Part shown: one piece after another, positions 14,453 through 34,207 of the stretch | Position numbering within the stretch: the first letter of the stretch is position 1 | Layout: each line of letters begins with the position of its first letter | Assembly (NCBI GenBank): GCA_049518795.1 | Contig: JBEKRK010000003.1 | Span: 99,854-163,853 of the forward strand | From: Sedimentisphaerales bacterium | GTDB lineage: Bacteria > Planctomycetota > Phycisphaerae > Sedimentisphaerales > UBA12454 | Direction: 5' to 3' | Length of the DNA: 64,000 nt | The notes under the pieces: generated by a model | What the model saw: only the letters and a program-made list of their open reading frames with translations | Told to the model about the DNA's origin: nothing | Database searches by the model: none | Translations under genes and position numbers: made by a program

Positions 14453-14467
14453 TTTAAAAGGTGATTT

Positions 14468-15751: not shown

Positions 15752-15835
15752 AATACCTCTTAATAAATATGAAAAATCTGTGGTAAATAAGTTTTTACCG
15801 GTGAATATAAAAAATAAATATAGGAGGAATTGATT

Positions 15836-16879: not shown

Positions 16880-16952
16880 AAAATAAAAGAAATAATCGGT
16901 GAAATCCGTGAAATCAGTGGTTTAAAAATAGTTATTATTGAAAGGTCATAAG

Positions 16953-17957
16953 ATGAAAACGAAAAAAAGAAAATTTGGTTTTACAATCGTTGAGCTTCTG
17001 ACAGTAATGGCAATTATAGCACTTTTACTGACTATTCTCACGCCTGCCCTTCGAATGGTGCGCAGGATTGCCAAGGATACGGCTCAAAAAGCGCAGTTTC
17101 ACAGTATCGATGTTGCGCTGGAAACCTACTCCGGCGAAATGGAACAGTATCCCACTTCTACTGTTCAACCTTGGGATTCGATAAATAACGAATTGGGCAA
17201 TGCTCCTTATACCGTAGGCGCGCATCATTTGGCCGAAGCCCTTCTTGGCAGAGATATGCTCGGTTATGACCCGTGGTCAACCTGGGACTCAGAACAAGAT
17301 GACACAACAGGCCATTATCATGATATCTATGCCAGTAAAGATAAGGGTTCAGATGATACCCAGATTTCCAAAAGTCTTGACCGCAGAAAAGGCCCTTATT
17401 TAAGTCCGGATAGTGTTGAATCATATCAGATTGCTCAATTATATACCGATACTACTCCTGGAGTCGGTGATGTTTATCCCGGCAATCTTGACAAGACCGG
17501 AAACGTTGTTTCGGGGCATTCTCCTGCCCCTGTTCTTACAGATTCCTATCTGGTTAAGACAATATCCCTGCCGAACGGCAGGCAGGTAAAGGCCGGCTCG
17601 CCGATTCTTTATTACAAGGCAAATATTAATTCGAGGATTTTTGAGAACTCCAAAAATGGAACAACTGGATCTGCTCAAACTGTATCAGATGCGTGTTCTA
17701 TACAAGGTATCTACGACAGTTTTGATAATGAGGCATTGCTCAAGCTTGGCTCTGTAGCAGACCAGAGCAAAAGGCATCTTTTTGATAAGGATGAAGGCGG
17801 AGCATTAGTAGGACGAACCAAGTTTTATGATATGATAACGAATCCTACGATTACGACTCAGGTCCGGCCTTTCAACCAGACAAGCTACATTCTTATGTCG
17901 GCAGGTTACGACGGCATTTTCGGCACGCCGGACGATATTTATAACTTTAAGAACTAA
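16953..17957 (+). CDS. Prepilin-type pseudopilin, enlarged GspG-family paralog 1
   Basis: The leader and cleavage motif is KKRKFG|FTIVELLTVMAIIALL. The C-terminal GspG-like loop is SAGYDGIFGTPDDIYNF. I moved the start to the ATG at 16953. Confidence 0.8.
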   Translation: MKTKKRKFGFTIVELLTVMAIIALLLTILTPALRMVRRIAKDTAQKAQFHSIDVALETYSGEMEQYPTSTVQPWDSINNELGNAPYTVGAHHLAEALLGRDMLGYDPWSTWDSEQDDTTGHYHDIYASKDKGSDDTQISKSLDRRKGPYLSPDSVESYQIAQLYTDTTPGVGDVYPGNLDKTGNVVSGHSPAPVLTDSYLVKTISLPNGRQVKAGSPILYYKANINSRIFENSKNGTTGSAQTVSDACSIQGIYDSFDNEALLKLGSVADQSKRHLFDKDEGGALVGRTKFYDMITNPTITTQVRPFNQTSYILMSAGYDGIFGTPDDIYNFKN

Positions 17958-18065
17958 ACCGCGGATTACGCGGATTGCGCGGATTTAAAAAGATGTAAAG
18001 AAGTAAGGATGTAAGGAAATAAGGAACTATCTGCGTTAATCTGTGAAATCTGTGGCTGAAAATCG
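17958..18065. repeat. Spacer made of three consecutive stutter arrays (CGCGGATTN x3, GTAAGGAN x4, AATCTGTGN x3)
   Basis: It contains accgcggattacgcggattgcgcggattt, gatgtaaagaagtaaggatgtaaggaaataaggaac and ctgcgttaatctgtgaaatctgtggctgaaaatcg. Confidence 0.8.
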
Positions 18066-18077
18066 AAGGGTGAAAAT

Positions 18078-19070
18078 ATGAAGACCGAAACAAATAATAG
18101 CCGCAAAGACTCTGAATCGCTAAGAACAAGAAGTAATAATTTTAAAACTTCGTGTCTTGGTGTCTTAGTGGCTAAAAAGGGGTTCACTCTCGCCGAGCTT
18201 ATTACCGTAGTCGTGATAATCGCAATTCTGCTGGGGATTTTAATGCCGGCCCTGTCGCAGGTAAAAAAAATAGCGCTTGAAGCCAAACAAAAGGCCCAGA
18301 TTACCAGCATCGAAGTCGGCATAAATATGTATAGAAACGACTTCGGTGCATACCCGCCGTCTCACGGCACGCAGACGGCTACTGAGTCGGTTTACTACTA
18401 CTGCGGCGCCCAGACCCTTACAGAAGCTATGTTCGGCTGGGATTTGCTGGGTGTTCACCAGAACTCAATCTTCAGGGCGGATGGACAAGACAACTCAGGC
18501 AATAATCTTTATCCTCCAGGCCCTAATTCGACAGAACTCAATGCCAGAAAAGAGCCTTATCTTGACAGGACGAATATCGGCGTTTTTACGCCTCGCCAGA
18601 TTTTTAATCAAACCTCTTTTCCAGCTTTTCCCGGCGGTTTGGATGCGGACAGGTATGTTATTTGTGATGTTTTTTCTGCTGCAAGCAGAGAAATCAACGG
18701 AAAATCTTATAAGGTCGGCACACCCGTCCTCTATTTTCAGGCAAACCTTGCTCCTGTAAATACACAAGGGCTTATAATTGCTTCTGCACCGCCTGATAAT
18801 AAGAACAATATTTATAACTATATGGATAATAATTTTCTTATAGAACTGGGAAAAATGACTAACACAACAACAGCTCATCCGCTTTATACGCCTCCCCCTT
18901 ATACAGGTGAACCATTTTATAAATATATTGTTGACCCAATGATTCCTGCAGCGTCCGGAACTGTCGGAATGCCTGTTCGAAAAGATACGTTTCTTTTGAT
19001 TTCAGCGGGCTTCGATGGCCTATACGGCACAAAAGATGATATATGTAATTTTAATCCGAATGTACAGTAA
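18078..19070 (+). CDS. Prepilin-type pseudopilin, enlarged GspG-family paralog 2
   Basis: It has VAKKG|FTLAELITVVVIIAILL and SAGFDGLYGTKDDICNF. The likely true start is GTG 18168 inside a repeat element, giving the short leader MAKKG. ATG 18078 would give an atypical 35-aa leader. Confidence 0.75.
   Translation: MKTETNNSRKDSESLRTRSNNFKTSCLGVLVAKKGFTLAELITVVVIIAILLGILMPALSQVKKIALEAKQKAQITSIEVGINMYRNDFGAYPPSHGTQTATESVYYYCGAQTLTEAMFGWDLLGVHQNSIFRADGQDNSGNNLYPPGPNSTELNARKEPYLDRTNIGVFTPRQIFNQTSFPAFPGGLDADRYVICDVFSAASREINGKSYKVGTPVLYFQANLAPVNTQGLIIASAPPDNKNNIYNYMDNNFLIELGKMTNTTTAHPLYTPPPYTGEPFYKYIVDPMIPAASGTVGMPVRKDTFLLISAGFDGLYGTKDDICNFNPNVQ
18148..18175. repeat. Family A right-arm half copy overlapping the 5' end of a pseudopilin gene
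   Basis: The sequence is cttcgtgtcttggtgtcttagtggctaa. GTG at 18168 is in frame with the prepilin motif. Confidence 0.8.
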
Positions 19071-19079
19071 AAAGTAAAT

Positions 19080-19328
19080 GAAAATACGAAGCACGAAATC
19101 CGAAATTCGAAACAATATCAAATGTTCAAAATACAAAGGTTCGAAACAGTTTTGAATTTTGGTAATTCGTATTTTGAATTTGCTTGCCCTGTGAGATGCC
19201 GCTTCGGCTATCTCTCTGGGGTTTCGGATTTCGATACTTGTCCGCCACAGCCTCGGCGACGGCGGATTCGAATTTCGAATTTAAAAACAAATTTGTGTTT
19301 ATCTGTGTTTATTTGTGGCTAATTTACG
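19080..19328. repeat. Composite spacer: family F + P + Q + TGTGTTTA array
   Basis: The F copy (agcacgaaatccgaaattcgaaacaa..tcaaatgttcaaaa) recurs at 49754-49815. The P copy is at 19187-19221 and the Q copy at 19237-19266. These are followed by atttgtgtttatctgtgtttatttgtggctaa. Confidence 0.75.
19187..19221. repeat. Family P bulged hairpin repeat
   Basis: The sequence is ccctgtgagatgcc-gctt-cggctatctctctgggg. Confidence 0.7.
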
Positions 19329-19336
19329 GCGGAATT

Positions 19337-19906
19337 ATGTTGAAGATGACAAACAAAAACGGCCTGACTATCGTGGAGATTCTGGTCGCTGTTACGATAA
19401 TAGCGCTCCTTGCCGCAGGACTGTATTCCGTCAGCAATTATCTTGAAAAACAAGCCAAAATAAAACTTACCGAATCGACAATCGAAGCCCTTTCTGCCGC
19501 CATCGAGCAGTATCGCGATTTTAACGGACATTTTCCTTTTGTGACTGGCACAGGTTCTTATGGTCTAAGTCAGCTTCAAACAACTCTTAATGGAACCGTC
19601 GTAAATCCCACTGATTACAATGACATATATGCTTCAAGTGATGCTTTGTATTATATTTTAAATCAAGTCCCCGCAAGCAAGAAGATTATCGATAACCTGA
19701 ACCGTTCGCTGGTTACAAATAAAGACTATAAAGGCACAGAATATTTTATTCTTATCAACGGTGTGAATTATCCATTGATACATATTATTGACCCGTGGAA
19801 GTGTCCGTTGAGATATACGTATAAAGATAGCGATAATTTTCCGTTAATAGAGTCAACCGGGCCGGACAGGGATTTTAATACGCCTGACGATATCAGCAGC
19901 AGATGA
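19337..19906 (+). CDS. gspG: GspG-like major pseudopilin
   Basis: It has MLKMTNKNG|LTIVEILVAVTIIALL, then IIDPWKCPLRYTY (the GspG DPWG-x-PY motif) and a GPDRDFNTPDDI loop. The ORF-track extension back to 19184 consists of repeats. Confidence 0.8.
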   Translation: MLKMTNKNGLTIVEILVAVTIIALLAAGLYSVSNYLEKQAKIKLTESTIEALSAAIEQYRDFNGHFPFVTGTGSYGLSQLQTTLNGTVVNPTDYNDIYASSDALYYILNQVPASKKIIDNLNRSLVTNKDYKGTEYFILINGVNYPLIHIIDPWKCPLRYTYKDSDNFPLIESTGPDRDFNTPDDISSR

Positions 19907-19910
19907 TAAA

Positions 19911-20013
19911 TAATTTAAAATTTAATATTGAAGATTGAAAATTTAAAATATTTAAAACCGTGTAAATCCGTGTTAATCCGTGTCTCAAAAAGTCAGTGTT
20001 AGTCAGTGTCGAT
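19911..20013. repeat. Composite spacer: family D + AATCCGTGT array + AGTCAGTGT array
   Basis: It contains ccgtgtaaatccgtgttaatccgtgtctc and agtcagtgttagtcagtgtc. The same composite occurs in reverse orientation at 42556-42600. Confidence 0.75.
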
Positions 20014-20895
20014 ATGAAAAGAGCTTTTTCCATTATTGAATTGCTTGTTGTGATGGCGGTAATCGCGTTGCTTGTAGTGATTGCGATACCTGCGATAAAC
20101 GCGATGCAGAAGTCTTTCGATTCGACCGGCTCAGAATCGATGATTAGCACAGCCCTTGCCACCGCAAGAACATTAGCAATAAAAAACAACCATTACACCG
20201 GCGTCAGATTCCAAAAAGCATGGTATAAACCTTCTTCTGACCCTGCTGTTCCGCCTTACGATAACCTCAGCAAGGCCGACCAGTATATGATTTTTATAAC
20301 TTACAACAGCGATAAAACAGGTCTGGATTGCGGTTTTATTGCTATGGATGGTTATAAACCTATAAAACTTCCGGAAAATATCTGTGTAATAGATAAAATT
20401 GTAAGAAATTATACTGTTAGCGTGACTCCAAGAACCTGTGGTAATCCAATAGTTGAAACAGGTTTAAGCCCAAGCGATCTTGATGATGTTACAGCAAATC
20501 TCGACCCTGCTACTGAACCCTATCTTGAACATGACAACATACACATCAGGGATACTTCAACATTTTCGATTGTTTTTTCTCCCTCGGGAAAACTTGTTAC
20601 ATTGGAAGTTAGATGCAGAAATAATGATAAACAAAGCAGGCCCGCATTAAATGCAGCTTCCGGTTCCGATGATAAGGTTTTTAATAGTTATTATGATATT
20701 GCTACCGGCAACGGTCAGTTTTTGCAGGATGATTATGACGATTTCGGAGTGGGCGTAGAGAATAGTCGAACAAATTTTGTTATATATGACCGGGGAAAAT
20801 TTGAAAAGATGACGACAAGCACGCAGAAAATGGATTATCTAACTGGACTAAAGGCAATGAATATAAATCCCTATACCGGCGAGATTATTAAATAG
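20014..20895 (+). CDS. Minor pseudopilin (GspH-like by position)
   Basis: It starts MKRA|FSIIELLVVMAVIALL with a prepilin motif. It occupies the gene-order position of GspH. I moved the start to the ATG at 20014. Confidence 0.65.
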   Translation: MKRAFSIIELLVVMAVIALLVVIAIPAINAMQKSFDSTGSESMISTALATARTLAIKNNHYTGVRFQKAWYKPSSDPAVPPYDNLSKADQYMIFITYNSDKTGLDCGFIAMDGYKPIKLPENICVIDKIVRNYTVSVTPRTCGNPIVETGLSPSDLDDVTANLDPATEPYLEHDNIHIRDTSTFSIVFSPSGKLVTLEVRCRNNDKQSRPALNAASGSDDKVFNSYYDIATGNGQFLQDDYDDFGVGVENSRTNFVIYDRGKFEKMTTSTQKMDYLTGLKAMNINPYTGEIIK

Positions 20896-20927
20896 AATGT
20901 AGAATATAGAACATAGAATTTAGAATA
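20893..20927. repeat. Five tandem heptamers TAGAAYN starting with the gspH-like stop codon
   Basis: The units are tagaatg tagaata tagaaca tagaatt tagaata. The 7-nt period places TAG in all three frames. Confidence 0.85.
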
Positions 20928-20945
20928 AATTAAAATAAAAATTTT

Positions 20946-20973
20946 CTTTGTGTCTTGGTGTCTTAGTGGCTAA
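20946..20973. repeat. Family A right-arm half copy containing the start codon of the gspI-like gene
   Basis: The sequence is ctttgtgtcttggtgtcttagtggctaa, with TTG at 20948 and GTG at 20966. Confidence 0.8.
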
Positions 20974-21667
20974 GAAATTTAAACAAAGCGGTTTTTCTCT
21001 TACCGAGGTCTTGATGGCCGCAGGCATTCTTTCTATCGGTATGATGCTGGTAGCCACGATGTTTCCGGTCGCGATTTACCTGACAAGCATATCGGTCGAA
21101 AGGACAATGGCCGCTATTGTTGCTGATGAAGCATTCGCGAAAATTCAGCTTTACGGCATTGGCACGCCTATTCTCAATATCGGCGATTATAACGATATCC
21201 CCGGCCTGACAATTGACCCCTGCGAATTTTCGTATAATCCGACACAAGCTCTAACAAATCCCCAATATTACTGGTCAGCCGTTTACAGAAAATTGAGCCC
21301 GGTGGACCCGAATTATCAGATGACGGTCTTTGTCGCCAGAAAAACAAATCCGGGACTGACGTATCCCAACCCTGGCGGTCCGTCTTATGATAGACCAAAA
21401 CTTATTATGATTCAGAGTATAGTGCAACCTGATCCGAATTTCCTGGTCGTTACGGTTTATCCGCAATATGTTAATCCGCCGACAGCGATACTCGATAATG
21501 CTACCGGTAAAATATACCGCGTTATTGACAGGCAGAATACTAAGGTGAAACTTGACAGAGGCTGGGAAGATTCGACCGGCCCAGCTAATATTTGGCTTAT
21601 TCCTCCGCCCGTAACCGGCGGACGAAATGCGGATATCGAAGTTTATCAGAGAATAATAAGATTTTAA
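20948..21667 (+). CDS. Minor pseudopilin (GspI/PilV-like by position)
   Basis: It has KQSG|FSLTEVLMAAGILSIG. There is no in-frame ATG upstream. The start must be TTG 20948 or GTG 20966, and both lie inside a repeat element. Confidence 0.65.
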   Translation: MCLGVLVAKKFKQSGFSLTEVLMAAGILSIGMMLVATMFPVAIYLTSISVERTMAAIVADEAFAKIQLYGIGTPILNIGDYNDIPGLTIDPCEFSYNPTQALTNPQYYWSAVYRKLSPVDPNYQMTVFVARKTNPGLTYPNPGGPSYDRPKLIMIQSIVQPDPNFLVVTVYPQYVNPPTAILDNATGKIYRVIDRQNTKVKLDRGWEDSTGPANIWLIPPPVTGGRNADIEVYQRIIRF

Positions 21668-21670
21668 GGA

Positions 21671-21743
21671 TAGCCACAAAGGCACAAAGACACGAATAAA
21701 AATAATATATAAAAAACTTAGTGCCTTGGTGTCTTAGTGGCTA
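21671..21743. repeat. Family A inverted stutter element (TAGCCAC...GTGGCTA), full copy
   Basis: The left arm is tagccacaaaggcacaaagacacgaa, the centre is AT-rich (20 nt) and the right arm is cttagtgccttggtgtcttagtggcta. The arms are built from the 8-nt word CTTNGTGN. Confidence 0.85.
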
Positions 21744-21749
21744 ATTGAT

Positions 21750-22496
21750 ATGAAAAAAGGCTTTACTATTATCGAATTATTAGTTGCGATGGGTTTGTTT
21801 GCGGCCGTCATCGCGGCGGCGGGTATGATTTTTAATTATTCAATCGAGTCCCAGAGAACCGCCGCGGCCACTGCCGAGATTATGCGAACCCTCCGCGCAA
21901 TTACCGACCAGATTGATATTGATTTCCAGAGTCTGCGAACAGATGGATATTTAATTTTATATTCAGAGCAGGTCGGCAGCGATAATTATGATGCCCTTTA
22001 CTATTTCAGCACAGGCGATTATCAGTCGTGGGCAGATACTTCGACAAGATCCAACATTGCCCGAATCTTTTTAGGACACAGTCAATCGACTTATACCGGC
22101 AAAATATTGCCCGGCGATTTGGCAAGAGATATTCTTCTTTTAGTTCCGGGTTATACAGGAACGGGCAATGATGTGAAAAATATAAGTTTTGCTGAGTGTC
22201 AGGCAGCTATTACTAATCTCGAAAATCCTAATACCGCGTTTTTTACTACTGGCAGGCCGCCCGCTGGCTCCACGAATATCGGAAGTCTTTTTGCTCAAAA
22301 AGTTGGCAGTTTTAGAATTGAATGGACTAATGGAATCAGCGGAAATCGAATAAATTGGTCTTCGACAGCGATTACCTGCACGCCGACAAGTTCGAACTGG
22401 CCGAAGGCTCTTAAATTTACGTTCACGCTTTATGATTCCAAAAGGATTCTCAAAGGCGGCAGAACGTTTGAACATATAGTTTATATAGGACCGTAG
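21750..22496 (+). CDS. Minor pseudopilin (GspJ/PulJ-like)
   Basis: It has MKKG|FTIIELLVAMGLFAAV followed by a long N-terminal helix. It sits before the GspK-like gene. Its stop TAG is the first triplet of a repeat element. Confidence 0.65.
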   Translation: MKKGFTIIELLVAMGLFAAVIAAAGMIFNYSIESQRTAAATAEIMRTLRAITDQIDIDFQSLRTDGYLILYSEQVGSDNYDALYYFSTGDYQSWADTSTRSNIARIFLGHSQSTYTGKILPGDLARDILLLVPGYTGTGNDVKNISFAECQAAITNLENPNTAFFTTGRPPAGSTNIGSLFAQKVGSFRIEWTNGISGNRINWSSTAITCTPTSSNWPKALKFTFTLYDSKRILKGGRTFEHIVYIGP

Positions 22497-22569
22497 CCAC
22501 AAAGACACAAAGGCACTAAGAAAAGGTGATATATATTAAAAAACTTCGTGTCTTGGTGCCTTCGTGGCG
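22494..22569. repeat. Family A element, full copy; its first TAG is the stop of the gspJ-like gene
   Basis: The sequence is tagccacaaagacacaaaggcactaag / aaaaggtgatatatattaaaaaa / cttcgtgtcttggtgccttcgtggcg. Confidence 0.85.
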
Positions 22570-22591
22570 CCCTTTAAAGGAGGGCAGAAAA

Positions 22592-25195
22592 ATGATAAAA
22601 AAGATGATAAAACAATTTGAATATGACAGGCTGGGTTCTGCGTTAATTATGACCATTGTCCTGACGATAATGCTCGCTGTAATAGCCGTGATGTTTGTGG
22701 CTATTGCAAGGATGGATAGCGCAGCCACAAGCAATATTGCCGATAATAAAACCCTCGATTTAGCTGCCAAGTCAATTATAGAGCTTATCAATGGCCAACT
22801 TGTTAGCGATACACCGCCAATTGGAGGCACTTATTATGATTATCCAGATTCTCAGCATCCCTGGCTCGCAAGCAATGAGCCGTATCAAGACCCGACAGTT
22901 CCAACTAAATATTATTGGCGGCAAATAAGCGATGTGACGAATTATCTGCATCAACACTTCTATCTTACAAATAATATAGATACTGATTATCCAGGCGTCA
23001 GAGATGTAATATTAGATTATCCAGTTATAACTCTTGATGGCAGCGGTAACTTACAGGACAATTTGGCCGATGCTGATGGCGATGGTATCCTTGATTCAAA
23101 ATGGATTGAACTTACGGATTTGCGAACTTCAAAAGGAAAGAAAATTTACGCCGCCGTCAGGGTAATTGACAATAGCGGAATGGTCAATGTCAATACCGCG
23201 TATCAGTTTGACCCTACCAGCGGCAGTCAAGCGAGAATTGACGGTTCAACCCAAATGCAGATAAATCTCAAAGGTCTCTTGAAGTCCAGCGATGATATTG
23301 GTAGCTTGCAAGCTGCTCGTTTAGGCTCTGCGACACTCCCCCAAAGCTGGGCTGATTATCAAAAAAAGATTATCTGGCAATACGGCCTGCCTGCGGACGG
23401 CAATTATCGTCCCTTTGATATTTCCGATGAGCTTGAATTAAGATACAGATATTGTATTGACAGTAAATTTGAAAGCCGCTTGGAAAAGGTGCTGCCTCAA
23501 ACTTCTGATGCAGGCATAAACGCCGGAAGCCTTTATGATGCAGCTGGTAGCGGCCGGGGACTTGAAGAATGGCAGGCCAGAATTACAGAAACCAACAGCA
23601 TAGGCATTCGCAGGCATTATTTGACAACTCTGAATCTTGACAGGATTATTGCCCCTGACGGCAATAAAATGACCAATATAAATGATGCTAATGTGAATGA
23701 ATTATACAATGCCATTCTCAATAGCGGCGTTGACGCTAATACGGCCGCCCAAATGGCGGTCAATATAATTGATTATCGGGATAGCGATTCGAATGTTACT
23801 GCTTTTAATGTGGGTTCTACCACTTATTATGGTTTCGAGACCCCCTGCATTTACATTTCCGAATTAGCTTACAATAAAAGTGGCAGCAATATGTCTTACG
23901 CAATCGAACTTTATAAGCCTTATTCCGGTGATTTAGATCCTGTTGGATGGAAACTTCATAGTGACCTCACAGGCAATTATTATAATATTAACTGGTCGGG
24001 GACAAAGCAGTTTTATGTTATAAAGTGGGAGAGCCCCGGAGTTTCATTTGTTATAGATCCTTGCGCTTCAACCCAAGATGGAGGTGCTCCGGGTTCTGGC
24101 ATTTTCAGTGCCGGCACTACGATTTCATTAATACGCACAGTTAAGGTTGGAGCTGCTGATATTGATATTACAGTTGATTCTTTTATTGTTCCTGTTGGTT
24201 GGTCGCCTTCAGGCAATGGTATTTATAGTCTTCAAAGAGATATTGCATCTGCAAAATGTATAAGGTGGTCGGGGATGGCGGGTATTCGGGGTTTGTGGGG
24301 CGGGATGGTCAGTGGTTCTCAAACTCTGGGATTGATTAATACCGCTATACCTCCTGATGATGGCAAATATATCCAAGCTCATCCAAAAAATGCCGCCTTC
24401 ACAAATATCGGTGAGATTGGAATGATTTTCCGCAAACCGGCTTATTATCCTTATATAGGTAGCAGCGCACCTGCCGGTACAATTGGTTATGATAGCACTG
24501 CTGATGAGGAATCTGAAGTTTTTGTCGATTTGTCCCAAACGACTTATCAGCAGATTTTTAAATATCTTACCGTTATCGACCCTTATAACGCTGTTGATCG
24601 GTTAAATCCAAATCCGGCTTATTTAAATGAAACAAGAATTAAAGGCAGGATAAATATCAACACCGCCCCTGCGTATGTGTTGGCTCAATTGCCGTGGGTT
24701 TCGCTAAGAAATGACCCCGTCGGCTACAACAATGCCAATCTTGCCAATGCGATAGTTGCTTATAGAGATAAACAAAACCTTTCTCCTTCCGGCCCTGATT
24801 ATAGAAGTTCAGACCCTTGTGGTTTTAGAACTATTGGCCAGCTAATGAATGTCCGTTACCCGCCTCAGGATTACCGGATTGATTATTATAGTCGTGTTTT
24901 AACTGGAGACCAGCCGGGATTTCCTGATTTAAGCGGCGGCGATGGCGCTCCGGATGATTATGAAGAGCGGGATTTAATTTTCACCCGAATCAGCGACCTT
25001 GTAACGGTTCGCAGCGATGTCTTTACCGCTTATATTTTAGTGCGTGTCTGCACAAATGTTAAAAGTGATGGGACAATTGAAGGCCCGCAGAAAAGATACA
25101 TCGCAATTCTCGACAGAAGCCAAGTGGGAGACTCTCGATTTCCGGGTAATAAGGTTATAATAAGAGCCTTTCAGGTTGTGCCGGAAGCACGTTAG
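22592..25195 (+). CDS. Giant GspK-like minor pseudopilin (about 867 aa)
   Basis: It has the non-canonical hydrophobic N-terminus LGSALIMTIVLTIMLAVIAVMFVAIA. The C-terminal motif RIKGRININTAPAYVLAQLPWVS is GspK-type. DADGDGILD is Ca-site-like. An AAAGGAGGG RBS lies before the ATG at 22592. Confidence 0.7.
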   Translation: MIKKMIKQFEYDRLGSALIMTIVLTIMLAVIAVMFVAIARMDSAATSNIADNKTLDLAAKSIIELINGQLVSDTPPIGGTYYDYPDSQHPWLASNEPYQDPTVPTKYYWRQISDVTNYLHQHFYLTNNIDTDYPGVRDVILDYPVITLDGSGNLQDNLADADGDGILDSKWIELTDLRTSKGKKIYAAVRVIDNSGMVNVNTAYQFDPTSGSQARIDGSTQMQINLKGLLKSSDDIGSLQAARLGSATLPQSWADYQKKIIWQYGLPADGNYRPFDISDELELRYRYCIDSKFESRLEKVLPQTSDAGINAGSLYDAAGSGRGLEEWQARITETNSIGIRRHYLTTLNLDRIIAPDGNKMTNINDANVNELYNAILNSGVDANTAAQMAVNIIDYRDSDSNVTAFNVGSTTYYGFETPCIYISELAYNKSGSNMSYAIELYKPYSGDLDPVGWKLHSDLTGNYYNINWSGTKQFYVIKWESPGVSFVIDPCASTQDGGAPGSGIFSAGTTISLIRTVKVGAADIDITVDSFIVPVGWSPSGNGIYSLQRDIASAKCIRWSGMAGIRGLWGGMVSGSQTLGLINTAIPPDDGKYIQAHPKNAAFTNIGEIGMIFRKPAYYPYIGSSAPAGTIGYDSTADEESEVFVDLSQTTYQQIFKYLTVIDPYNAVDRLNPNPAYLNETRIKGRININTAPAYVLAQLPWVSLRNDPVGYNNANLANAIVAYRDKQNLSPSGPDYRSSDPCGFRTIGQLMNVRYPPQDYRIDYYSRVLTGDQPGFPDLSGGDGAPDDYEERDLIFTRISDLVTVRSDVFTAYILVRVCTNVKSDGTIEGPQKRYIAILDRSQVGDSRFPGNKVIIRAFQVVPEAR

Positions 25196-25294
25196 CCACG
25201 AAGGCACAAAGACACGAAATATATAATTAAAAAACTTAGTGCCTTGGCTTGTCCCGCCATAGCCTTTTGGCGACGGCGGATGTCTTAGTGGCTA
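25193..25294. repeat. Family A element, full copy, filling the whole spacer between two convergent genes; both terminal TAGs are the stop codons
   Basis: The left arm spans 25193-25218. The right arm (25235-25247 plus 25281-25295) is interrupted by a 33-nt insert. TAG at 25193 ends the gspK-like gene. The reverse complement of CTA at 25292-25294 ends the minus-strand gene. Confidence 0.85.
25248..25280. mobile_element. 33-nt family Q mini-element precisely inserted into a family A arm
   Basis: Removing cttgtcccgccatagccttttggcgacggcgga restores cttagtgccttggtgtcttagtggctaa. That sequence is identical to the right arm at 21717-21744. Related copies lie at 19237-19266 and 41354-41386 (reverse complement), with shorter forms at 32983-33008 and 33063-33082. 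Confidence 0.6.
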
Positions 25295-25633
25295 ATTTTT
25301 GAGCAGTAGTTGATGCACTATCGCGGCTATAAGCCAGGCCGCGAATGAAAAAGCCACTGTCGGCAGGATTGAAATCTGCTTTTTAAAGCACAAAAAAGCG
25401 ACAATAAAGAAAAATACGGTGGGAATTATTCCCCATAAAACGCCTCTTGTGAAATCGGTCATCAGTTTAAAATCGCCGGGCCTGTCAGACCACAGCCAAA
25501 GAAGGACTATCAGCGTTGTTATCGGCGCTGTCGCTATCAGGCCCGCAAGAGCAGGCGCCTTTTTGCCGATTTGGGAGCAGAAAGTAATTATCGCAATCGT
25601 TATCAAAAGCTTGATAAGAAACTTTGTATCCAT
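25292..25633 (-). CDS. Small 4-TM membrane protein, unknown function
   Basis: It is 113 aa with four hydrophobic helices. Its stop codon is the terminal TAG of the repeat element at 25193-25294. Confidence 0.5.
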   Translation of the reverse strand: MDTKFLIKLLITIAIITFCSQIGKKAPALAGLIATAPITTLIVLLWLWSDRPGDFKLMTDFTRGVLWGIIPTVFFFIVAFLCFKKQISILPTVAFSFAAWLIAAIVHQLLLKN

Positions 25634-25740
25634 TCGTTTTCCCTTTAGAAAAAGAATCGCTGATTACGCTGATTTCACAGAAGTAATTTAGAAATAATAT
25701 AATCAACGAAATCCGTGTAATCTGTGATTAAAAAAAGAAT

Positions 25741-26790
25741 TTAGTTTAGCTTTGCCCTTAACGTTTCTGCCCTCAGGATATCTCTTTGTTCGGCGTCAAG
25801 GTTTTGGCCTTTGTTTATCTGCAGATGGGCCGGCTGGGTAAGCAGGAACAATTCGTTTATTGTATCGATTGAAATTTCCTTTATTCTGCCCATATTTACG
25901 CCCATTCGCAGGTTGCTCAGAAGGAACATTGCCTCGTGCGAGCTGATTAGTCTTGCACTTTTCAGAACGGCAAGTGCACGTGAAATTTTATCGTCGAGGA
26001 TATTGACGTCTTTTACTAATAATCTGTCGCGGGCGAGTCTTTCGTATTCGACGATTTTCGGGATTATAAGGGTTTGGAAATCTTCAACAGTTTTCTCTTC
26101 GCTTATGCCTAAGGTAACCTGGTTTGAAATCTGGAAGAAGTCGCCGACCGCTTCTGTCCCTTCGCCAAACAGGCCGCGGATAGCGAGGTTCATATCCTTT
26201 GCAGCCTCAAAAAGTTTTTTAAGCTGGTCGGTCAGTTTAAGGCCGGGCAGGTGGAGCATTACTGAAACCCTGATGCCGGTGCCGAGGTTTGTCGGGCAGG
26301 CAGTCAAAAACCCAAGCTTTGGATTAAAAGCATATTCGATTTTTTTGCTGATGGCGTCGTCGATGTCGTTAATTCTCTGCCAGCATTTATCCACATTAAG
26401 ACCCGCCGACAAAACAGCCAGTCTCAGATGGTCTTCTTCGTTTATCTGGGCTGCGAAAAGCTCATTTTGGGCGATTACAACGCCTCTTGGCCCTTTGCCT
26501 GCCGCCAGATGCCTGCTGATAAGCTGTCTTTCGATGAGCAAATCTCTTTCAAGTCCGCTGCCGTGTTCGATATCGATGAAGAATATATCGCCGAGCTGGT
26601 CAAGAGAAAGGATAGCCTCTTTCAGGCTCTGCAGAATCTCCTGTTTTTCTAAATTATCGCAGCGTGAAATAAATTTATGGCCGGCAAGATTACGGGCCAG
26701 TCTTATCCGTGACGATATCACAATATCAGACAGCGGTGCCTCGGAGCTGAACCATTGTGACAGTTTACTGCTTAATTCGTCTAATCTCAT
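25741..26790 (-). CDS. mcsB: Protein arginine kinase McsB (ATP:guanido phosphotransferase family)
   Basis: VISSRIRLARNLAGHKF, NEEDHLR and CPTNLGTGIRVSVMLHLPGL are signature segments of the phosphagen-kinase domain. Confidence 0.9.
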   Translation of the reverse strand: MRLDELSSKLSQWFSSEAPLSDIVISSRIRLARNLAGHKFISRCDNLEKQEILQSLKEAILSLDQLGDIFFIDIEHGSGLERDLLIERQLISRHLAAGKGPRGVVIAQNELFAAQINEEDHLRLAVLSAGLNVDKCWQRINDIDDAISKKIEYAFNPKLGFLTACPTNLGTGIRVSVMLHLPGLKLTDQLKKLFEAAKDMNLAIRGLFGEGTEAVGDFFQISNQVTLGISEEKTVEDFQTLIIPKIVEYERLARDRLLVKDVNILDDKISRALAVLKSARLISSHEAMFLLSNLRMGVNMGRIKEISIDTINELFLLTQPAHLQINKGQNLDAEQRDILRAETLRAKLN

Positions 26791-30967: not shown

Positions 30968-31110
30968 TTTAATTCCCTCCGGCTAAATTTAATTAAAGAG
31001 TTGATATAAGTTATGCCTGAAAAACTGTTTTTGCAAGAAAAATGACCTTGTTTAAACTCTCATTGGGATATTTAAAAATTGGTATGGGTGTCAGTATCGG
31101 TAAGGGTTCC

Positions 31111-31139
31111 GTCTTCGCACATTCGTGCTGCGAACAGAC
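31111..31139. repeat. Family R hairpin (shared 17-mer cttcgcacattcgtgct)
   Basis: The same 17-mer occurs at 31113-31129 and 49696-49712, each closed by a different outer stem (gtc..gac versus tccacc..ggtgga). Confidence 0.65.
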
Positions 31140-31183
31140 AAGTCGCCGCGACGCTGCGCGAAGGCAAAAGGAAAACCCCACAC

Positions 31184-32049: not shown

Positions 32050-32092
32050 CCCCGTGAGATGTCCGCCCGCAGGCGAGACTATCTCATCGGGG
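32050..32092. repeat. Family P hairpin repeat
   Basis: The sequence is ccccgtgagatgtc-cgcccgcaggc-gagactatctcatcgggg. Confidence 0.75.
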
Positions 32093-32373: not shown

Positions 32374-32982
32374 GTGACAAAATTTTACTTACCAATTCCA
32401 ATCCCGAAAATTATCGAAACCATCTTCGTTTATTTCCTTCTGCGATACAGGAAGAAAACCCACGGCTATCCGTTCCGCAAAATTAAACTCACAAAAGGTA
32501 AGTTCGCAAAAGTTGACCCGGAAGATTATCACAAATTAGCCCAATACGATTGGCACCTTGAAGAAAGCAAAAACAGAAAAAATTGCTATGCTGTCCAATA
32601 CGAAGACAGCAGATACGTGAAAATGCACAGAGTTATTATGAACGCTCCTGCCGGCAAAATCGTTGACCATATAAACGGCGATGGCCTCGATAATACTAAA
32701 CGCAATTTGCGAATCGCTACCTATGCTCAAAACTCTTATAATAAAAGACTAAAAAAGAAAGGCACCTCAAAATACAAAGGTGTATATTTTTATAAACAAA
32801 CGAATAAATGGGCATCGCATATAAATTATAATAATAAGAGATTACATTTAGGTTATTTTGATAACGAACAAGACGCCGCAAGGGCTTACGACAATGCCGC
32901 GAAAATTTATCACGGCGACTTTGCAGTGCTTAATTTTCCCGATGACTCGCAAATCCAAAACTATTTAGCCCCTCGGCCTTAA
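32374..32982 (+). CDS. HNH endonuclease + AP2 DNA-binding domain protein (homing-endonuclease-like)
   Basis: MHRVIMNAPAGKIVDHINGDGLDNTKRNLR is the HNH_3 pattern. YKGVYFYKQTNKWASHINYNNKRLHLGYFDNEQDAARAYDNAAKIYHGDFAVLNF is AP2. It has a GTG start and a hydrophobic N-terminus. Confidence 0.7.
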   Translation: MTKFYLPIPIPKIIETIFVYFLLRYRKKTHGYPFRKIKLTKGKFAKVDPEDYHKLAQYDWHLEESKNRKNCYAVQYEDSRYVKMHRVIMNAPAGKIVDHINGDGLDNTKRNLRIATYAQNSYNKRLKKKGTSKYKGVYFYKQTNKWASHINYNNKRLHLGYFDNEQDAARAYDNAAKIYHGDFAVLNFPDDSQIQNYLAPRP

Positions 32983-33279
32983 TCCGACGAAGCTTTAGCG
33001 AAGGCGGATGCCGAGAGGTTCGTTTATTGTGCGGGGTTCGTCAAAATCCTAAAGCCCCCAAGCTTGTCCGCCTTCGGCGGATTTATATTGGGGGTTCTCT
33101 CCACTAAAAGACCGCCTTATAAGAATATCGGTTTTTTCGGAGAAAATTGGTTGAGTTTGAAAAGAAGTTTCCTTCGACCCTGCTCAGGATGAACCATTGA
33201 CAAAGAGATAAGAATGGTAGAAAATGGGGGAAATTTATCTGGAAAAAATCGCAAAAACGTTAAGAATTAATAAAGAACA

Positions 33280-34188
33280 ATGATAGCAACCAGAGAAAAG
33301 CAGATTATAGCTAAACCATTTCTCAAATGGGCTGGAGGGAAAACACAGCTTCTTGATGAAATTGAAAAACGCTTACCTAATGGTCTTTCGACAGGAGAGA
33401 TTACAACTTATATTGAACCTTTTGTTGGCGGAGGAGCTGCATTTTTTTATATTGCACAAAATTACACAAAAATAAAAAAGTTTTATCTTTACGACATTAA
33501 TAACGACCTTGTTAATTGTTATAAGACGGTTCAAACGGATGTTAACTCTCTTATCAAGTCTCTTGGGAAACTAGAAGCGGAATTTTTGCCATTAAATCAC
33601 AATGATAGAAAAAAGTTTTATTTGAAAATCCGCAAAGAATTTAATCAGGATAAATGCGAAAATCATAATCCTGAAACTATGGCTAAATTGATCTTTTTAA
33701 ATAAAACCTGTTTCAATGGGCTTTACAGGGTAAACAGCAAAAACGAGTTTAACGTTCCTTTCGGTGATTATAAAAATCCTAAAATTTGTGACGGAAAGAA
33801 TTTGTTGGCCGTTTCGGAAGTCCTGCAAAAGGCCGAAATAATTTGCGGAGATTTTACAAAAAGCAGGAAAAATATAAGTAAAAATTCTTTTATTTATTTA
33901 GACCCGCCATACAGACCACTGAATGGCACGGCGAGTTTTACCGCATATTCGAAGGACAGCTTTTCTGAAGAAGACCAGATTAGACTGGCAGAATTTTGCA
34001 AAGAAATTAAACAAATTGGAGCAAAATTTCTTTTAAGCAATTCCGATCCTAAAAATGAAAATCCAGAAGACCATTTCTTTGAAGACAATTTCAGAGGCTT
34101 CGATATTCAAAAAGTAAAGGCAAGTAGAGTTATTAACTGCAAGGCAGTTGGGCGAGGTCAAATTAGTGAACTTCTAATTACGAATTGA
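33280..34188 (+). CDS. Dam-type N6-adenine DNA methyltransferase (probable GATC)
   Basis: It has PFLKWAGGKTQLL, EPFVGGGA and the catalytic YLDPPYRP. The region is AT-rich. Confidence 0.9.
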   Translation: MIATREKQIIAKPFLKWAGGKTQLLDEIEKRLPNGLSTGEITTYIEPFVGGGAAFFYIAQNYTKIKKFYLYDINNDLVNCYKTVQTDVNSLIKSLGKLEAEFLPLNHNDRKKFYLKIRKEFNQDKCENHNPETMAKLIFLNKTCFNGLYRVNSKNEFNVPFGDYKNPKICDGKNLLAVSEVLQKAEIICGDFTKSRKNISKNSFIYLDPPYRPLNGTASFTAYSKDSFSEEDQIRLAEFCKEIKQIGAKFLLSNSDPKNENPEDHFFEDNFRGFDIQKVKASRVINCKAVGRGQISELLITN

Positions 34189-34207
34189 ACGGAGTGTTTT
34201 TGTAAGC

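Follow-up and report, generated by a model that had tools for sequence, protein, structure and literature searches.

The multiplication of REP-like repeats is a long-standing open question, and for tag-bearing REP families that lack a RAYT we know of no enzyme. Two further groups of small palindromes are pertinent here. RPE-1, reportedly described by Ogata and colleagues in 2000, is said to be a selfish palindromic element of 100-150 nt that is confined to Rickettsia and tolerated in frame in conserved protein genes. The SDRs of cyanobacteria, hairpin repeats of 21-27 nt whose mobility Elhai and co-workers reportedly inferred from filled and empty sites in 2008, are said to nest in one another, to go together with short tandem heptamers, and to be restricted to (filamentous) cyanobacteria; to our knowledge they have neither a target duplication nor an enzyme assigned to them. 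REPs occur inside genes and other palindromes, and those with a CGTC or TGTC tag lack a dedicated transposase (PMC3733652). The CGTC/TGTC-tagged super-family includes dRS3 of Neisseria and RPE-4 and RPE-6 of Rickettsia (Di Nocera et al. 2013). REPs as described are species-specific, their hairpins are cut and rejoined by HUH/Y1 enzymes, and atypical hairpins in high copy number flank the class-3 TnpA(Y1) genes of Planctomycetes, Acidobacteria, and Proteobacteria (PMC6006769).

The whole stretch of DNA analysed here (64 kb, hereafter the window) belongs to a Sedimentisphaerales (Planctomycetota) MAG. At 25.2 kb, the 3' arm of one octamer-repeat hairpin (family A) is interrupted by a 33-nt segment. 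This segment is probably a secondary insertion of a mobile palindromic element of the REP/RPE/SDR kind, here called Q, which would have moved as a hairpin. The arrangement of the interrupted copy and of its uninterrupted counterpart is as follows.

21671-21744, plus strand: uninterrupted family-A hairpin, whose right arm (21717-21744) serves as the empty-site reference
25192-25218, plus strand: left (5') arm of the interrupted family-A hairpin, TTAGCCAC GAAGGCAC AAAGACAC GAA
25219-25234, plus strand: AT-rich loop of this hairpin
25235-25247, plus strand: proximal part of its right (3') arm, CTTAGTGCCTTGG, same as 21717-21729
25248-25280, plus strand: Q element, the inserted segment of 33 nt (covariance match 25248-25281, 51.9 bits, E 8e-16)
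25281-25295, plus strand: distal part of the right arm, TGTCTTAGTGGCTAA, same as 21730-21744, 18161-18175, and 20959-20973

The stretch 25235-25295 reads cttagtgccttgg[cttgtcccgccatagccttttggcgacggcgga]tgtcttagtggctaa, with the insert in the middle bracket. Once 25248-25280 is removed, as in the artificial empty allele CTTAGTGCCTTGGTGTCTTAGTGGCTAA, the 28-mer of 21717-21744 is regained exactly, which bears out the preliminary description of this locus. The boundaries of the insert are unambiguous (a shared 13-nt prefix and a shared 15-nt suffix add up to 28), and no target-site duplication is present at 25247/25281, again as first described. In a scan of every 20-60 nt deletion at each window position (~2.6 million trials), 25248-25280 was the sole deletion that yielded a 13+15-mer found elsewhere in the window. 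An independent assembly matches base for base: the Logan assembly of run SRR7028477 (contig L001) shows 100% identity across 21712-25433, insert included. The left arm, which lacks any counterpart of Q, begins within the final bases of an 867-aa gene (gene end 25195), the last gene of a pilus/T2SS-like operon; the encoded protein has no relative above 57% identity and is the sole member of its 90% cluster. The right arm ends at 25295. The composite of A and Q folds into a three-way junction (-38.3 kcal/mol, z = -4.3). It has TGTCTTAG directly after Q and is itself followed by TTTTT, and the consensus terminator scan makes no call here because the loop is long.

Q is 30-34 nt long and extends from 5'-CTTGTC to GGCGGA-3'. 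The stem GTCCGCC/GGCGGAT is broken by a 3x3 internal loop, and a 3' tail is absent or variable. The copy at 25248-25280 consists of a CTTG tail, an outer stem of 6-7 bp with one bulged C, the 3x3 loop (ATA/GAC), an inner stem of 3 bp, and a UUUU apical loop; CUUG/UUCG-type tetraloops occur at the apex of other copies. Across 62 aligned members the TGTC tag is invariant, and 97.7% of the cells of the 10 base pairs are paired. The structure rests on this pairing rather than on covariation, as compensatory changes are few in a family of such conserved sequence whose 3' half was fixed by the search pattern. The two sides of the internal loop, which is RNA-like and GA-rich, co-vary (G.A with GAA, A.C with GAC). 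In copies not chosen by the search pattern the base following GGCGGA is T, C, or A, and the same ends of Q recur in such independent contexts as the A arm (33 nt), a TTCGAATT-type octamer array (30 nt), and the CTP synthase gene pyrG (30 nt). A search of the whole window against Rfam 15 at E<=1 returned a single match (E 0.53), and the best matches of a local scan of 121 nt were miRNA models and P26, at 16-17 bits compared with gathering scores of 36-99.

With REP/REPIN elements (RAYT, TnpA-REP, HUH-Y1) Q shares a GC-rich imperfect hairpin of 20-40 nt with a short conserved 5' tail, and dispersed copies that lie mostly at convergent or co-directional intergenic junctions, sometimes in genes or palindromes, without target duplication (PMC3733652, PMC6006769). 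It also agrees with the REP definition, which asks for a GC-rich imperfect palindrome of about 20-65 nt that is dispersed in many copies; Q has seven in 64 kb. However, REPs possess a GT[AG]G guide 0-2 nt 5' of the hairpin foot and flank a cognate tnpA-REP gene (REPtron), whereas the 5' tail of Q is CTTG and its tag TGTC in all copies; GT[AG]G is not found 5' of the foot, and the only place where GTAG appears is the internal loop, in some variants. REPs frequently form inverted doublets (REPIN/BIME), whereas all window copies of Q are singletons, and no RAYT gene lies near Q in the window ORFs examined and the added flanks. Moreover, REP sequences are described as specific to a species (PMC6006769) or genus, whereas the sequence of Q is kept in more than 10 phyla including CPR. 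Like the CGTC/TGTC-tagged REPs (tag CGTC or TGTC/CCTC), Q carries TGTC directly 5' of its stem, occurs in several phyla and within ORFs, and has no known dedicated transposase. Its 5' half, TGTC-CGCC-GAAG, resembles what we take to be the CGTC-1 hairpin of dRS3-type sequences. In contrast to Q, the stem of CGTC-tagged REPs starts with two near-invariable A-T pairs and is continuous over 8-9 bp with a loop of 4-5 nt, where Q has 6-7 bp, the 3x3 loop, and 3 bp; Q also lacks their unpaired CCA tail and their head-to-head dimers. The supplements of Di Nocera 2013 contain none of five Q-derived strings (FAKA, GEGG, GGCGGA, TCCGCC, TGTCC), neither they nor those of Quentin 2018 hold Q or Q peptides, and in the literature the sequence strings of Q and family A matched only unrelated text (16S fragments, primers).

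RPE-1 and Q are both palindromes found in frame within genes, but Q is much shorter than RPE-1 and is distributed across phyla. SDRs likewise are tiny nesting hairpins that accompany tandem repeats (heptamers in SDRs, octamers for Q), with no target duplication and no known enzyme; however, the sequences are unrelated, and Q is slightly longer with a conserved internal loop. Non-autonomy and the formation of structure are what Q shares with MITEs and IS200/IS605-derived PATEs, and IS200/IS605 derivatives enter single-stranded DNA without target duplication. MITEs, which derive from an IS, have terminal inverted repeats, target duplications, and a length of at least 70 nt, and PATEs require distinct left and right hairpins near their ends and insert 3' of a fixed tetra- or pentanucleotide, whereas Q is one 33-nt hairpin with no target consensus. 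The kind of element is already known; its unusual parts are the conservation of sequence across phyla and the mobilising machinery, for which the ORFs examined gave no enzyme.

A covariance model built on the Q family was run over the window, the four best copies belonging to its training alignment. It finds seven copies, each in a different context, with the seventh scoring 22.2 bits and the next window match 10.6 bits (E 0.46). Besides the copy at 25248-25280, these copies and the associated hairpins of a second family, P, are the following.

19187-19221: P copy just upstream of the next Q copy
19237-19266, plus strand: Q copy of 30 nt (covariance match to 19267, 48.8 bits) between units of a TTCGAATT-type octamer array
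31107-31142, minus strand: newly listed R-like Q copy (22.2 bits, E 3e-5) with the inner hairpin GCACGAATGTGC as in 'R'
32050-32092, plus strand: P hairpin in an A-type right arm, CTTCGTGTCGAGGTTTA[P]TGGCTA
32978-33009, plus strand: diverged Q copy (26.3 bits) in the loop of CCTCGGC/GCCGAGAGG
33063-33082, plus strand: short Q form, CTTGTCCGCC TTC GGCGGAT (22.5 bits), between CCCCCAAG and TTGGGGG
41354-41386, minus strand: Q copy of 33 nt (covariance match from 41353, 45.6 bits) between CCCCATAAC and GTTAGGGG, within a small local palindrome
48334-48447, minus strand: family-A hairpin whose GTGGCTAA-side arm is broken by a P hairpin at 48350-48381
49691-49724, minus strand: Q variant ('R'), CCTGTCCACC..GGTGGA (covariance match from 49690, 37.1 bits), with compensatory stem changes

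All four additional Q copies of the preliminary description (19237-19266, 41354-41386, 32983-33008, 33063-33082) were recovered by the model, and the P hairpin placed there within a family-A arm at 48349-48381 is confirmed within an A-type arm, at 48350-48381. The hairpin at 49689-49721, taken at first for a separate family R within a family-A arm, does lie within an A-type octamer array, but it is a variant of Q, because GTCCACC...GGTGGAT matches Q with compensatory changes in the stem. Its host is a CTCTGTG-type octamer array (49675-49740) ending in GTGGCTAA; the flanks read contain no partner arm for this single octamer array ending in TTAGCCAC, so that the supposed two-armed host did not stand. 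The R-like copy at 31107-31142 is situated at the edge of a CGGTAxCG-type octamer array, the diverged copy at 32978-33009 spans the stop codon of an HNH-AP2 gene (gene end 32982), and the loop of the P hairpin at 32050-32092 contains another small GC hairpin. Neither tRNA nor tmRNA was found in the window.

Q, P, and A, initially treated as features of one genome, are all found well beyond it. A scan of GTDB species genomes gave about 100 true Q hairpins among at least 120 matches listed. A hairpin was counted as true if its unconstrained middle was equal to the complementary half of the hairpin; the search pattern fixed 19 positions, and conservation there is partly by construction. According to record titles, the carriers among the matches listed come from more than 10 phyla and have the same 31-nt consensus. 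They include Verrucomicrobiota, Acidobacteriota, Planctomycetota, Lentisphaerota, Kiritimatiellota, Bacteroidota, and Armatimonadota, and further Patescibacteria, Alphaproteobacteria, Desulfobacterota, Nitrospirota, Dependentiae, and Hydrogenedentes. Isolate genomes with Q are those of Niastella populi, Bradyrhizobium frederickii, and Pontiella sulfatireligans. The copy in another Phycisphaerae MAG (L036) is one loop base apart from that at 25248-25280. Nine true copies occur on IMG/VR contigs, none in 7.3 Gb of plasmids or in 2.3 Gb of cultured-phage genomes, and Q is rare in cultured replicons.

Nesting of Q takes several forms. Q lies within Q in L056 and L088 and in tandem in L030, and in L059 it separates the units of a GTAG REP dimer; outside the window, too, copies form direct tandems and nests rather than inverted pairs. 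Adjacent flank stems of at least 8 bp accompany 9% of 87 Q copies as opposed to 1.3% in controls. The idea that a local hairpin always holds Q in its loop was rejected: an adjacent stem of 7-8 bp or more accompanies just 9-13% of copies, though this is 4-7x the control. The preliminary description had allowed for the case that no other pairs of filled and empty sites exist. They do exist: hairpins of Q/R and P break other A-type arms in the window, other metagenomes have small GC hairpins that break A arms at almost identical points (L060, L189, L229, L248), and CTP synthase genes offer a series of empty, intact, and decayed alleles. Uninterrupted hairpins are the common form of family A in the window and in the 119 metagenome loci listed. 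Only a handful of the 78 paired-up A hairpins from these two sources carry a GC hairpin in an arm, and the nested hairpins belong to different families (Q, P, CCTGCC-type). A position of family A just upstream of start codons, which several pilin genes of the window fit, was discarded as a rule, as the metagenome value is 0.40 and the random one 0.35.

No target consensus emerges from the base 5' of Q, which is G in 40, C in 23, T in 22, and A in 20 cases (n=105). Nor is there a recurrent gene neighbour, as the 129 Q-flanking ORFs matched 132 Pfam families of at most 3 members each; the 25 of these families that were listed include no transposase. Consistent with the original remark that the window has no transposase gene, neither a transposase-type Pfam domain nor a PF01797-type (tnpA-REP) match was detected in the window ORFs examined and the called genes of about 16 kb of added flank.

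Low-GC CPR genomes carry Q in frame within CTP synthase (PyrG), LeuRS, and ATP synthase alpha, and Q also occurs within the ORF of an ABC ATPase; these cases concern family members of other genomes, not the window copy. The commonest form of Q is free of stop codons in all six frames, and therefore survives inside genes; variants have one. The extra segment of CPR CTP synthase faces a gap of 11 residues in 3nva, the best PDB match. By alignment, the segment comprises 30 nt, that is 10 codons (SAVAKALADK), plus a separate 3-residue indel, or alternatively one undivided insertion of 13 residues. The closest 120 PyrG homologs divide into 59 empty, 25 Q-like, and 36 decayed ones, and a NJ tree of these requires at least 26 state changes. 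Direct reading of the DNA yields an orthologous series with empty (L151), intact (L068, L153), and decayed (L154) alleles, besides drifting ones (L278, L279). The Q stem is kept in PyrG of a 37%-GC genome, and in some lineages the in-frame copies in PyrG, LeuRS, AtpA, and the ABC ATPase have decayed to AT-rich codons. Two PyrG orthologs share the same 31-nt Q between flanks only 70% identical. Like the conservation of Q across phyla, this exceeds what would be predicted for an insertion that is purely parasitic and decays, and there is a hint of homogenisation or of selection acting on the hairpin.

From these evolutionary comparisons we infer that Q is or was mobile, in support of the preliminary description. 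The event at 25.2 kb was an insertion rather than a deletion, because uninterrupted A hairpins are common, the left arm lacks Q, and the contexts of Q are unrelated, with at least seven of them in the window in addition to the roughly 100 true copies from the genome scan. Q might instead be ancestral to the hairpin, and 21717-21744 and the other uninterrupted arms precise deletion derivatives. Against this stand the small number of arm-nested hairpins among the 78 and their different families, a partner arm with no matching segment, and the many non-A contexts of Q; precise loss is needed at some rate if the patchy PyrG pattern partly reflects losses, but such an origin of the empty arms is very improbable. 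Hardly more credible is a local de novo origin of the 33 nt, through a template switch or a repair primed by a hairpin while the A palindrome was being replicated, with a convergent likeness to Q. Palindromes are hot spots of template switching, and Q starts with CTTG like the preceding octamer unit CTTGG. However, the A hairpin has no sequence in common with the insert that could have been used as a template, the insert reaches its 51.9 bits with the family model (being among the training sequences) and has its near-identical relative in L036, and this membership in the Q family already contradicts a local origin. An assembly artefact or chance resemblance can practically be dismissed: some Logan contigs do start at repeats, but the two assemblies are identical across the junctions, the exhaustive deletion scan gives a single case, and isolate genomes carry Q.

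A weightier alternative, although still an unlikely one, regards Q as a selected structural module, either an RNA or ssDNA hairpin bound by a conserved host factor or a stem that stabilises or terminates transcripts. Such a module would be copied by recombination or gene conversion instead of transposition, and the copy in the A arm would be retained for a stronger 3'-end structure of the operon. The conservation across phyla, which extends to the non-canonical co-varying 3x3 loop and the tetraloops, fits this explanation, as do the identical DNA in the divergent PyrG orthologs, the stem kept at 37% GC, the TTTTT after the composite at a convergent gene junction, and the sense orientation of 4/4 informative window copies to neighbouring genes. 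Elsewhere, however, orientation is mixed, with 7 co-oriented and 13 anti-oriented copies according to crude ORF calling in high-GC MAGs, and neither a shared gene neighbourhood nor an Rfam family is found. In addition, half of the close PyrG orthologs lack Q, in-frame copies decay, and the Q-in-Q and tandem arrangements look parasitic rather than functional.

According to the preferred reading, secondary insertion of a mobile hairpin, Q would be a non-coding miniature palindromic element and its host a pre-existing octamer-repeat hairpin at a convergent operon end. Q would multiply within genomes and appears to have spread among very distant bacteria. The moving unit may be a single-stranded hairpin, cut and rejoined at the foot of the stem by a trans-acting enzyme, for which an HUH/Y1 protein of the RAYT or class-3 TnpA(Y1) type would be the best guess. 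As targets it might use extruded hairpins or DNA in a transiently single-stranded state; integration of Q is seen with neither a target duplication nor a recognisable target sequence, and inside other palindromes above expectation. Once inserted, Q would add a very stable GC-rich branch to a three-way junction in the transcript or in single-stranded DNA, and for the operon mRNA it would most likely be neutral or stabilise the 3' end mildly. A broader and more tentative possibility is that Q represents an undescribed, horizontally spreading mobile hairpin of ~30 nt, near-constant in more than 10 phyla, which enters hairpins and essential genes by means of a putative, widely shared machinery that would be a promiscuous HUH-type enzyme or else a conserved function of the host. 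Along with P, CCTGCC-type, and octamer-repeat hairpins, it might then form a layered 'hairpin-in-hairpin' intergenic ecosystem of uncultivated bacteria.

As an object for studying how such repeats multiply, Q offers unambiguous ends (one hairpin, CTTGTC...GGCGGA, and no target duplication) and a clean series of filled, empty, and decayed alleles in an essential gene. Its carriers are very different hosts, such as Bradyrhizobium, Niastella, Pontiella, and CPR, and owing to this breadth comparative genomics (gene co-occurrence) and simple ssDNA biochemistry are feasible. The annotation and alignment of MAGs are affected as well, as the hairpins give rise to spurious or extended ORFs (peptides SAFAKASADK, SLGEGG), insert 10-13 residues into conserved proteins, and coincide with some short-read contig ends. 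Some Logan contigs break at repeats: L001 begins within the 21.7-kb hairpin and L275 at a short Q.

The right arm of a family-A hairpin at 25192-25295 of the window is interrupted by a copy of the Q repeat.

Left arm of the 25192-25295 hairpin: TTAGCCAC GAAGGCAC AAAGACAC GAA
Loop: AT-rich, 16 nt
Right arm: CTTAGTGCCTTGG / TGTCTTAGTGGCTAA, the halves parted by 33 nt
25248-25280: Q insert, 33 nt, CTTGTCCCGCCATAGCCTTTTGGCGACGGCGGA

Deletion of 25248-25280 leaves 28 nt that match, base for base, the right arm of the uninterrupted hairpin at 21671-21744. Because this 28-mer is fully accounted for by a 13-nt prefix and a 15-nt suffix, the boundaries of the insert are unique and there is no duplication. 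As a chance control, every deletion of 20-60 nt was tried at each position of the window, and a single one, that of 25248-25280, yields a 13+15-mer found elsewhere in the window. An assembly error is excluded for the insert, because a Logan assembly made from run SRR7028477 matches the window at every base across 21712-25433. The 33 nt are a pre-existing repeat that was inserted into a pre-existing hairpin. The preliminary description, which had proposed a clean insertion leaving the arm at 21717-21744 once removed and no target-site duplication, is thus confirmed, and its interpretation as insertion of one repeat family into another is supported by the many unrelated sites at which Q was inserted.

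The predicted fold of the composite is a three-way junction in which the outer stem (TTAGCCAC/GTGGCTAA) leads to a Q branch and a shortened A branch, with folding energies of -38.3 kcal/mol as RNA (z -4.3) and -19.5 kcal/mol as DNA; the intact A hairpin reaches -25.2 kcal/mol. At this site the insertion is most likely almost harmless, and the 3'-terminal structure of the adjoining operon's transcript may be stiffened by it. The sole non-miRNA near-match in Rfam, at 25241-25293, is the Pseudomonas sRNA P26 (16.1 bits, E 0.21), whose 5-bp stem, 3x3 purine-rich loop, 2-bp stem, and tetraloop are arranged as in this segment; this resemblance probably is a coincidence. The neighboring genes are as follows.

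9352-25195: T2SS/type-IV-pilus-like operon (three T2SSE ATPases, one T2SSF protein, several N_methyl pseudopilins, and an 867-aa protein)
25741-26790, minus strand: McsB-type ATP:guanido phosphotransferase, among genes after 25195 that are oppositely directed

Since the genes next to the operon run in the opposite direction, the A+Q hairpin, with TTTTT following it, lies at a convergent junction. The 867-aa protein ending at 25195 (NCBI ABSE89_08205) has relatives with a ComEA-like annotation, and there is no close strain for comparison because its closest homolog is only 57% identical. ENA contig ERZ27250059:k141_510208 (302,916 bp) includes the window. The window ORFs examined and the genes called in 16 kb of added flank yielded no Pfam domain of a transposase type, in agreement with the earlier statement that the window lacks a transposase gene.

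A covariance model of 62 family members finds seven Q copies in the window at E<1e-4, the further copies already reported among them, and the next match follows at E 0.46. Its training set took in the four best window copies; the weaker three (32978, 33063, and 31107) were outside it.

19237, 30 nt: Q copy in an TTCGAATT-type octamer array
31107-31142, minus strand: Q copy, sibling of the hairpin termed R, with the same inner hairpin as 49691-49724
49691-49724, minus strand: hairpin termed R, CCTGTCCACCGTAGCACGAATGTGCGAAGGTGGA, with two compensated stem changes

R had been regarded as a family of its own; it is a Q variant instead. The second small GC hairpin, P (CCCYGTGAGATG...CTATCTCATCGGGG), occurs in the window at 19187, 31754, 32050, and 48350, with two conserved bulged A's and a compensatory change in the 31754 copy. 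Four A-type arms are interrupted by small hairpins, namely Q at 25248, P at 32050, and, as previously noticed, P at 48350 and R at 49691. All four hairpins lie on the GTG-strand arm, are oriented as the arm, and are directly followed by its TG; exactly 7 nt separate the hairpin from the terminal GTGGCTAA in three of them (25248, 48350, and 49691).

Family A follows the formula (TTA)GCCAC-(NAAGRCAC)n ... (GTGYCTTN)n-GTGGC(TAA). Arrays with an 8-nt period occupy most of the longer intergenic regions read. In many of them two complementary arms flank an AT-rich loop, small GC-rich hairpins are embedded in the arrays, and other units in the window are TTCGAATT, AAGGAWGT, ATTGAAAA, CGGTAACG, CCGTGAAAT, CTCTGTGN, CGCGGATT, ATCTGTGN, ATAGAAYN, TAGGGTAY, and CTGACTAA.

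Octamer-array regions: 12227-12538, 14288-14467, 15716-15829, 16880-16937, 17958-18175, 19071-19339, 19907-19995, 20896-20973, 25634-25740, 37060-37153, 37733-37860, 42109-42293, 42555-42621

To our knowledge, octamer-periodic hairpins of this kind have not been described, and family A matched no Rfam family and no literature by sequence string. A search of JGI/ENA metagenome contigs with the arm pattern CTTNGTGYCTTNGTGGCTAA retrieved at least 119 loci (L155-L273) on contigs of 0.30 to 0.70 GC; as the loci span this range, the arm sequence, like Q, is conserved over very different organisms. The metagenome hairpins read GCCAC-NAAGRCAC...GTGYCTTN-GTGGCTAA (for example L162, L182, L201, and L233). 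Among 78 A hairpins that could be paired up in the metagenome loci listed and the window, most are uninterrupted, and a few hold small GC hairpins in the GTG-strand arm. Interrupted GTG-strand arms in other genomes and metagenomes are:

L248: P copy, laid out as at 48350 and 32050 of the window
L189 and L229: CCTGCC(C/T)GCC...GGC(G/A)GG hairpins after CTTNGTG
L060: Q copy, CTCTCTG[Q]TGTCCTCTGTGGCTGAA

At two pseudopilin genes (18165-18200 and 20966-21010) the terminal GTGGCTAA of a hairpin gives the likely GTG start and the first prepilin-leader codons (GTG GCT AAA AAG GGG TTC ACT, MAKKG|FT; GTG GCT AAG AAA ... GGT TTT TCT). Elsewhere (21737-21752 and 19315-19342) it stops 5-25 nt ahead of an ATG, and a crude test in the metagenome sample saw no general link between A hairpins and start codons (0.40 vs 0.35).

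Nesting extends to other palindromes. In Pedosphaera and Opitutaceae MAGs an inner Q enters an outer Q at a fixed internal-loop point, between ..CCGCC(R)(W) and AGCC.. (L056, 396-450; L088, 5438-5530). Remnants of such nesting occur in L067, L108, and L112, and an Acidobacteriota MAG has three direct tandem Qs 33 nt apart (L030, 6517-6615). In an Opitutaceae MAG (L059, ~3028-3058) Q lies exactly between the inverted units of a GTAG REP doublet, GTAGGTCGGGGTTTATCCCCGAC [Q] GTCGGGCGTGAAGCCCGACCTAC, a miniature repeat family nested in a classical REPIN. A flanking stem of at least 8 bp adjoins 9% of 87 Q copies vs 1.3% in shuffled flank pairs; the preference for other palindromes is real but modest and concerns a minority of copies. 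P is also widespread beyond this genome. A 13-kb viral contig of IMG/VR (L150, IMGVR_UViG_3300031369_000089) has seven copies at positions 443-6990, arranged as CCCCGTGAGATGG-[GC hairpin]-CCTATCTCAYGGGGT with TTTTA before each. On the opposite strand, in three near-identical copies, P precedes AAGGAG and an ATG by a few bases, and here it looks like a 5'-UTR or intercistronic element.

The most interesting addition to the original observation is that Q is a pan-bacterial mini-element. A scan of GTDB, one genome per species, with the pattern CTTGTC-N(10-17)-GGCGAMGGCGGAT matched at least 120 loci, and in ~100 of the 120 listed the free middle reads C(C)GCC-RWA-GCC-loop and so completes the hairpin with its complementary half. 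By record title, the carriers include many Verrucomicrobiota (among them Opitutaceae, Pedosphaera, and Akkermansiaceae), Acidobacteriota, Armatimonadota, Planctomycetota (including Phycisphaerae and a second Sedimentisphaerales MAG), Lentisphaerota/Victivallales, Kiritimatiellota (Pontiella sulfatireligans F21), Bacteroidota (Niastella populi), Patescibacteria (Roizmanbacteria and Paceibacterota), Alphaproteobacteria (several Bradyrhizobium), 'Deltaproteobacteria'/Desulfatiglans, Nitrospiraceae, Babeliales, Hydrogenedentes, Fermentibacteria, and one Thermoleophilia MAG; a few matches carry Klebsiella or Bifidobacterium MAG labels, possibly through mis-binning of contigs. True Q hairpins make up 9 of 25 IMG/VR matches, whereas plasmids (7.3 Gb) and cultured phages (2.3 Gb) had none. 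Canonical Q is rare in the family-A metagenome loci listed, at 5 copies in 744 kb vs 7 in the 64-kb window. The consensus of the GTDB loci listed is CTTGTCCGCCGWAGCCTTGGCGAAGGCGGA, where conservation at the 19 positions fixed by the search pattern arises partly by construction; relaxed local searches retained the same architecture. Variants have an optional bulged base after TC and loops of the CUUG/CUCG/UUCG type, and the sides of the internal loop change jointly (GWA with GAA, AWA with GAC). Pairing reaches 97.7%, compensatory changes are few, and the family is conserved as sequence, beyond the fold alone. Q can persist at an orthologous site across species, because two different MAGs share near-identical flanks (L004 and L087). 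Near-identical flanks within one MAG (L077/L094 and L093/L101) look like duplicated segments, and L027/L062, also from a single MAG, have identical flanks.

Q also resides inside genes. At four loci of 35-45% GC the GC-rich Q is located within long ORFs, and the frame always reads (E/K/Q)SAFAKA(S/T)ADK.

L068: CTP synthase
L026: LeuRS (Roizmanbacteria)
L084: ATP synthase alpha
L005: ABC-type ATPase of the isolate Niastella populi

None of the six frames of Q in its GAA form contains a stop codon, and the GTA and ATA forms have one. The best PDB match to the CTP synthase (3nva) shows an 11-residue gap precisely at the Q segment, and the 120 closest CPR homologs divide into 59 without the segment, 25 with a Q-like peptide, and 36 with a diverged peptide. 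These states are interleaved: P0122 (88% identical) is empty, and P0123 and P0125 (81% identical) are filled. A neighbor-joining tree requires at least 26 state changes vs ~40 with random labels, a rough figure as the tree is shallow. Between L068 and L153 the 31-nt Q is identical (35/36 nt with flanking codons), whereas identity is 70% over the adjoining 81 nt on each side. In L278 the outer stem persists with synonymous-site drift (30/36), L279 is an internal-loop variant, in L154 Q has decayed into AT-rich codons (ETAIQKALLEKK), and L151 is an empty allele. Our alignment places the extra codons, SAVAKALADK, on TCC...AAG, which reads CTTGTC...GGCGGA on the other strand, so that the insert has the ends of the 33-nt Q in the A arm and of the 30-nt Q in the TTCGAATT-type array at 19237. 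Alternatively, the PyrG insert could be one undivided 13-residue insertion; the Q family was demonstrably inserted elsewhere too. Filled and empty sites, whose comparison the preliminary description had proposed, thus exist outside the window as GC hairpins in other A arms and as filled, decayed, and empty PyrG alleles. Besides Q, these conserved genes hold further inserts derived from repeats: the AtpA (L084:1206-2882, GC 0.38) has a ~60-residue RLRGDDRGS... block between two PDB-aligned domains and the LeuRS (L026:6784-7998) a second SAKASAGK segment close to its N-terminus; several hairpin families seem to be tolerated within essential proteins of low-GC genomes.

Elements of this kind are already known as REP/BIME/REPIN, tagged REPs, RPEs, and SDRs. 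Rickettsia RPEs occur inside genes, and the cyanobacterial SDRs of Elhai (2008), 21-27 nt long, are reportedly nested. Nothing Q-like was found in Rfam, and Q was not found in the REP catalogues examined or by sequence strings in the literature. Unlike RAYT-type REPs, Q lacks a GTAG guide and doublets and is not species-specific, and it matches the CGTC super-family in the TGTC tag alone. The CGTC/TGTC-tagged REPs, to which dRS3 and RPE-4/6 belong, lack a dedicated transposase (PMC3733652).

Across many lineages, members of the Q family were inserted at numerous unrelated sites, always with constant ends and no target duplication; no target consensus was found, and the flanking ORFs revealed no association with a gene family. 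Q probably moves as a single-stranded hairpin acted on by a trans-acting enzyme, for which HUH/Y1 is the closest documented chemistry. RAYTs cleave REP hairpins and join them again at a guide tetranucleotide located at the stem foot, and the little-studied class 3 proteins, mainly of Planctomycetes, Acidobacteria, and Proteobacteria, are encoded by genes flanked by atypical hairpins with up to ~600 copies (PMC6006769). No class 3 gene was found in the window ORFs examined and the 16-kb flank, nor any link to Q. As the main alternative, Q may be a selected hairpin, or be homogenized between copies, rather than an inert parasite. This would account better for its constancy across phyla, the co-varying non-canonical loop, and the perfect identity in two diverged pyrG genes, but it is unlikely overall: a dedicated function is opposed by the decay series and many empty orthologs of pyrG, the Q-in-Q nesting, the lack of any common gene neighborhood, and the mixed orientation in other genomes (a crude analysis). 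By analogy with REPs, which are both mobile and exploited, a mobile and a selected hairpin are not mutually exclusive.

Some Logan contigs of this organism break inside repeats, L001 at 21712, in the A hairpin at 21.7 kb (within its loop), and L275 at 33062, the first base of a short Q; Q/A repeats may thus fragment assemblies. A 202-aa ORF at 32374-32982 with HNH_3 and AP2 domains is homing-endonuclease-like and lies between a P hairpin on its upstream side (32050-32092) and two Q copies starting within its last codons (32978-33082). A low-GC stretch (0.33-0.38) harbors two apparent defence modules. The module at 33280-35613 is a restriction-modification-like cluster of a D12-class methyltransferase, a MutH/MvaI-like endonuclease, and an N6_N4 methyltransferase; the other, at 38077-40732, combines an OLD-family AAA_15/TOPRIM ATPase with a UvrD-type helicase downstream of it, a pair that may be Gabija-like.
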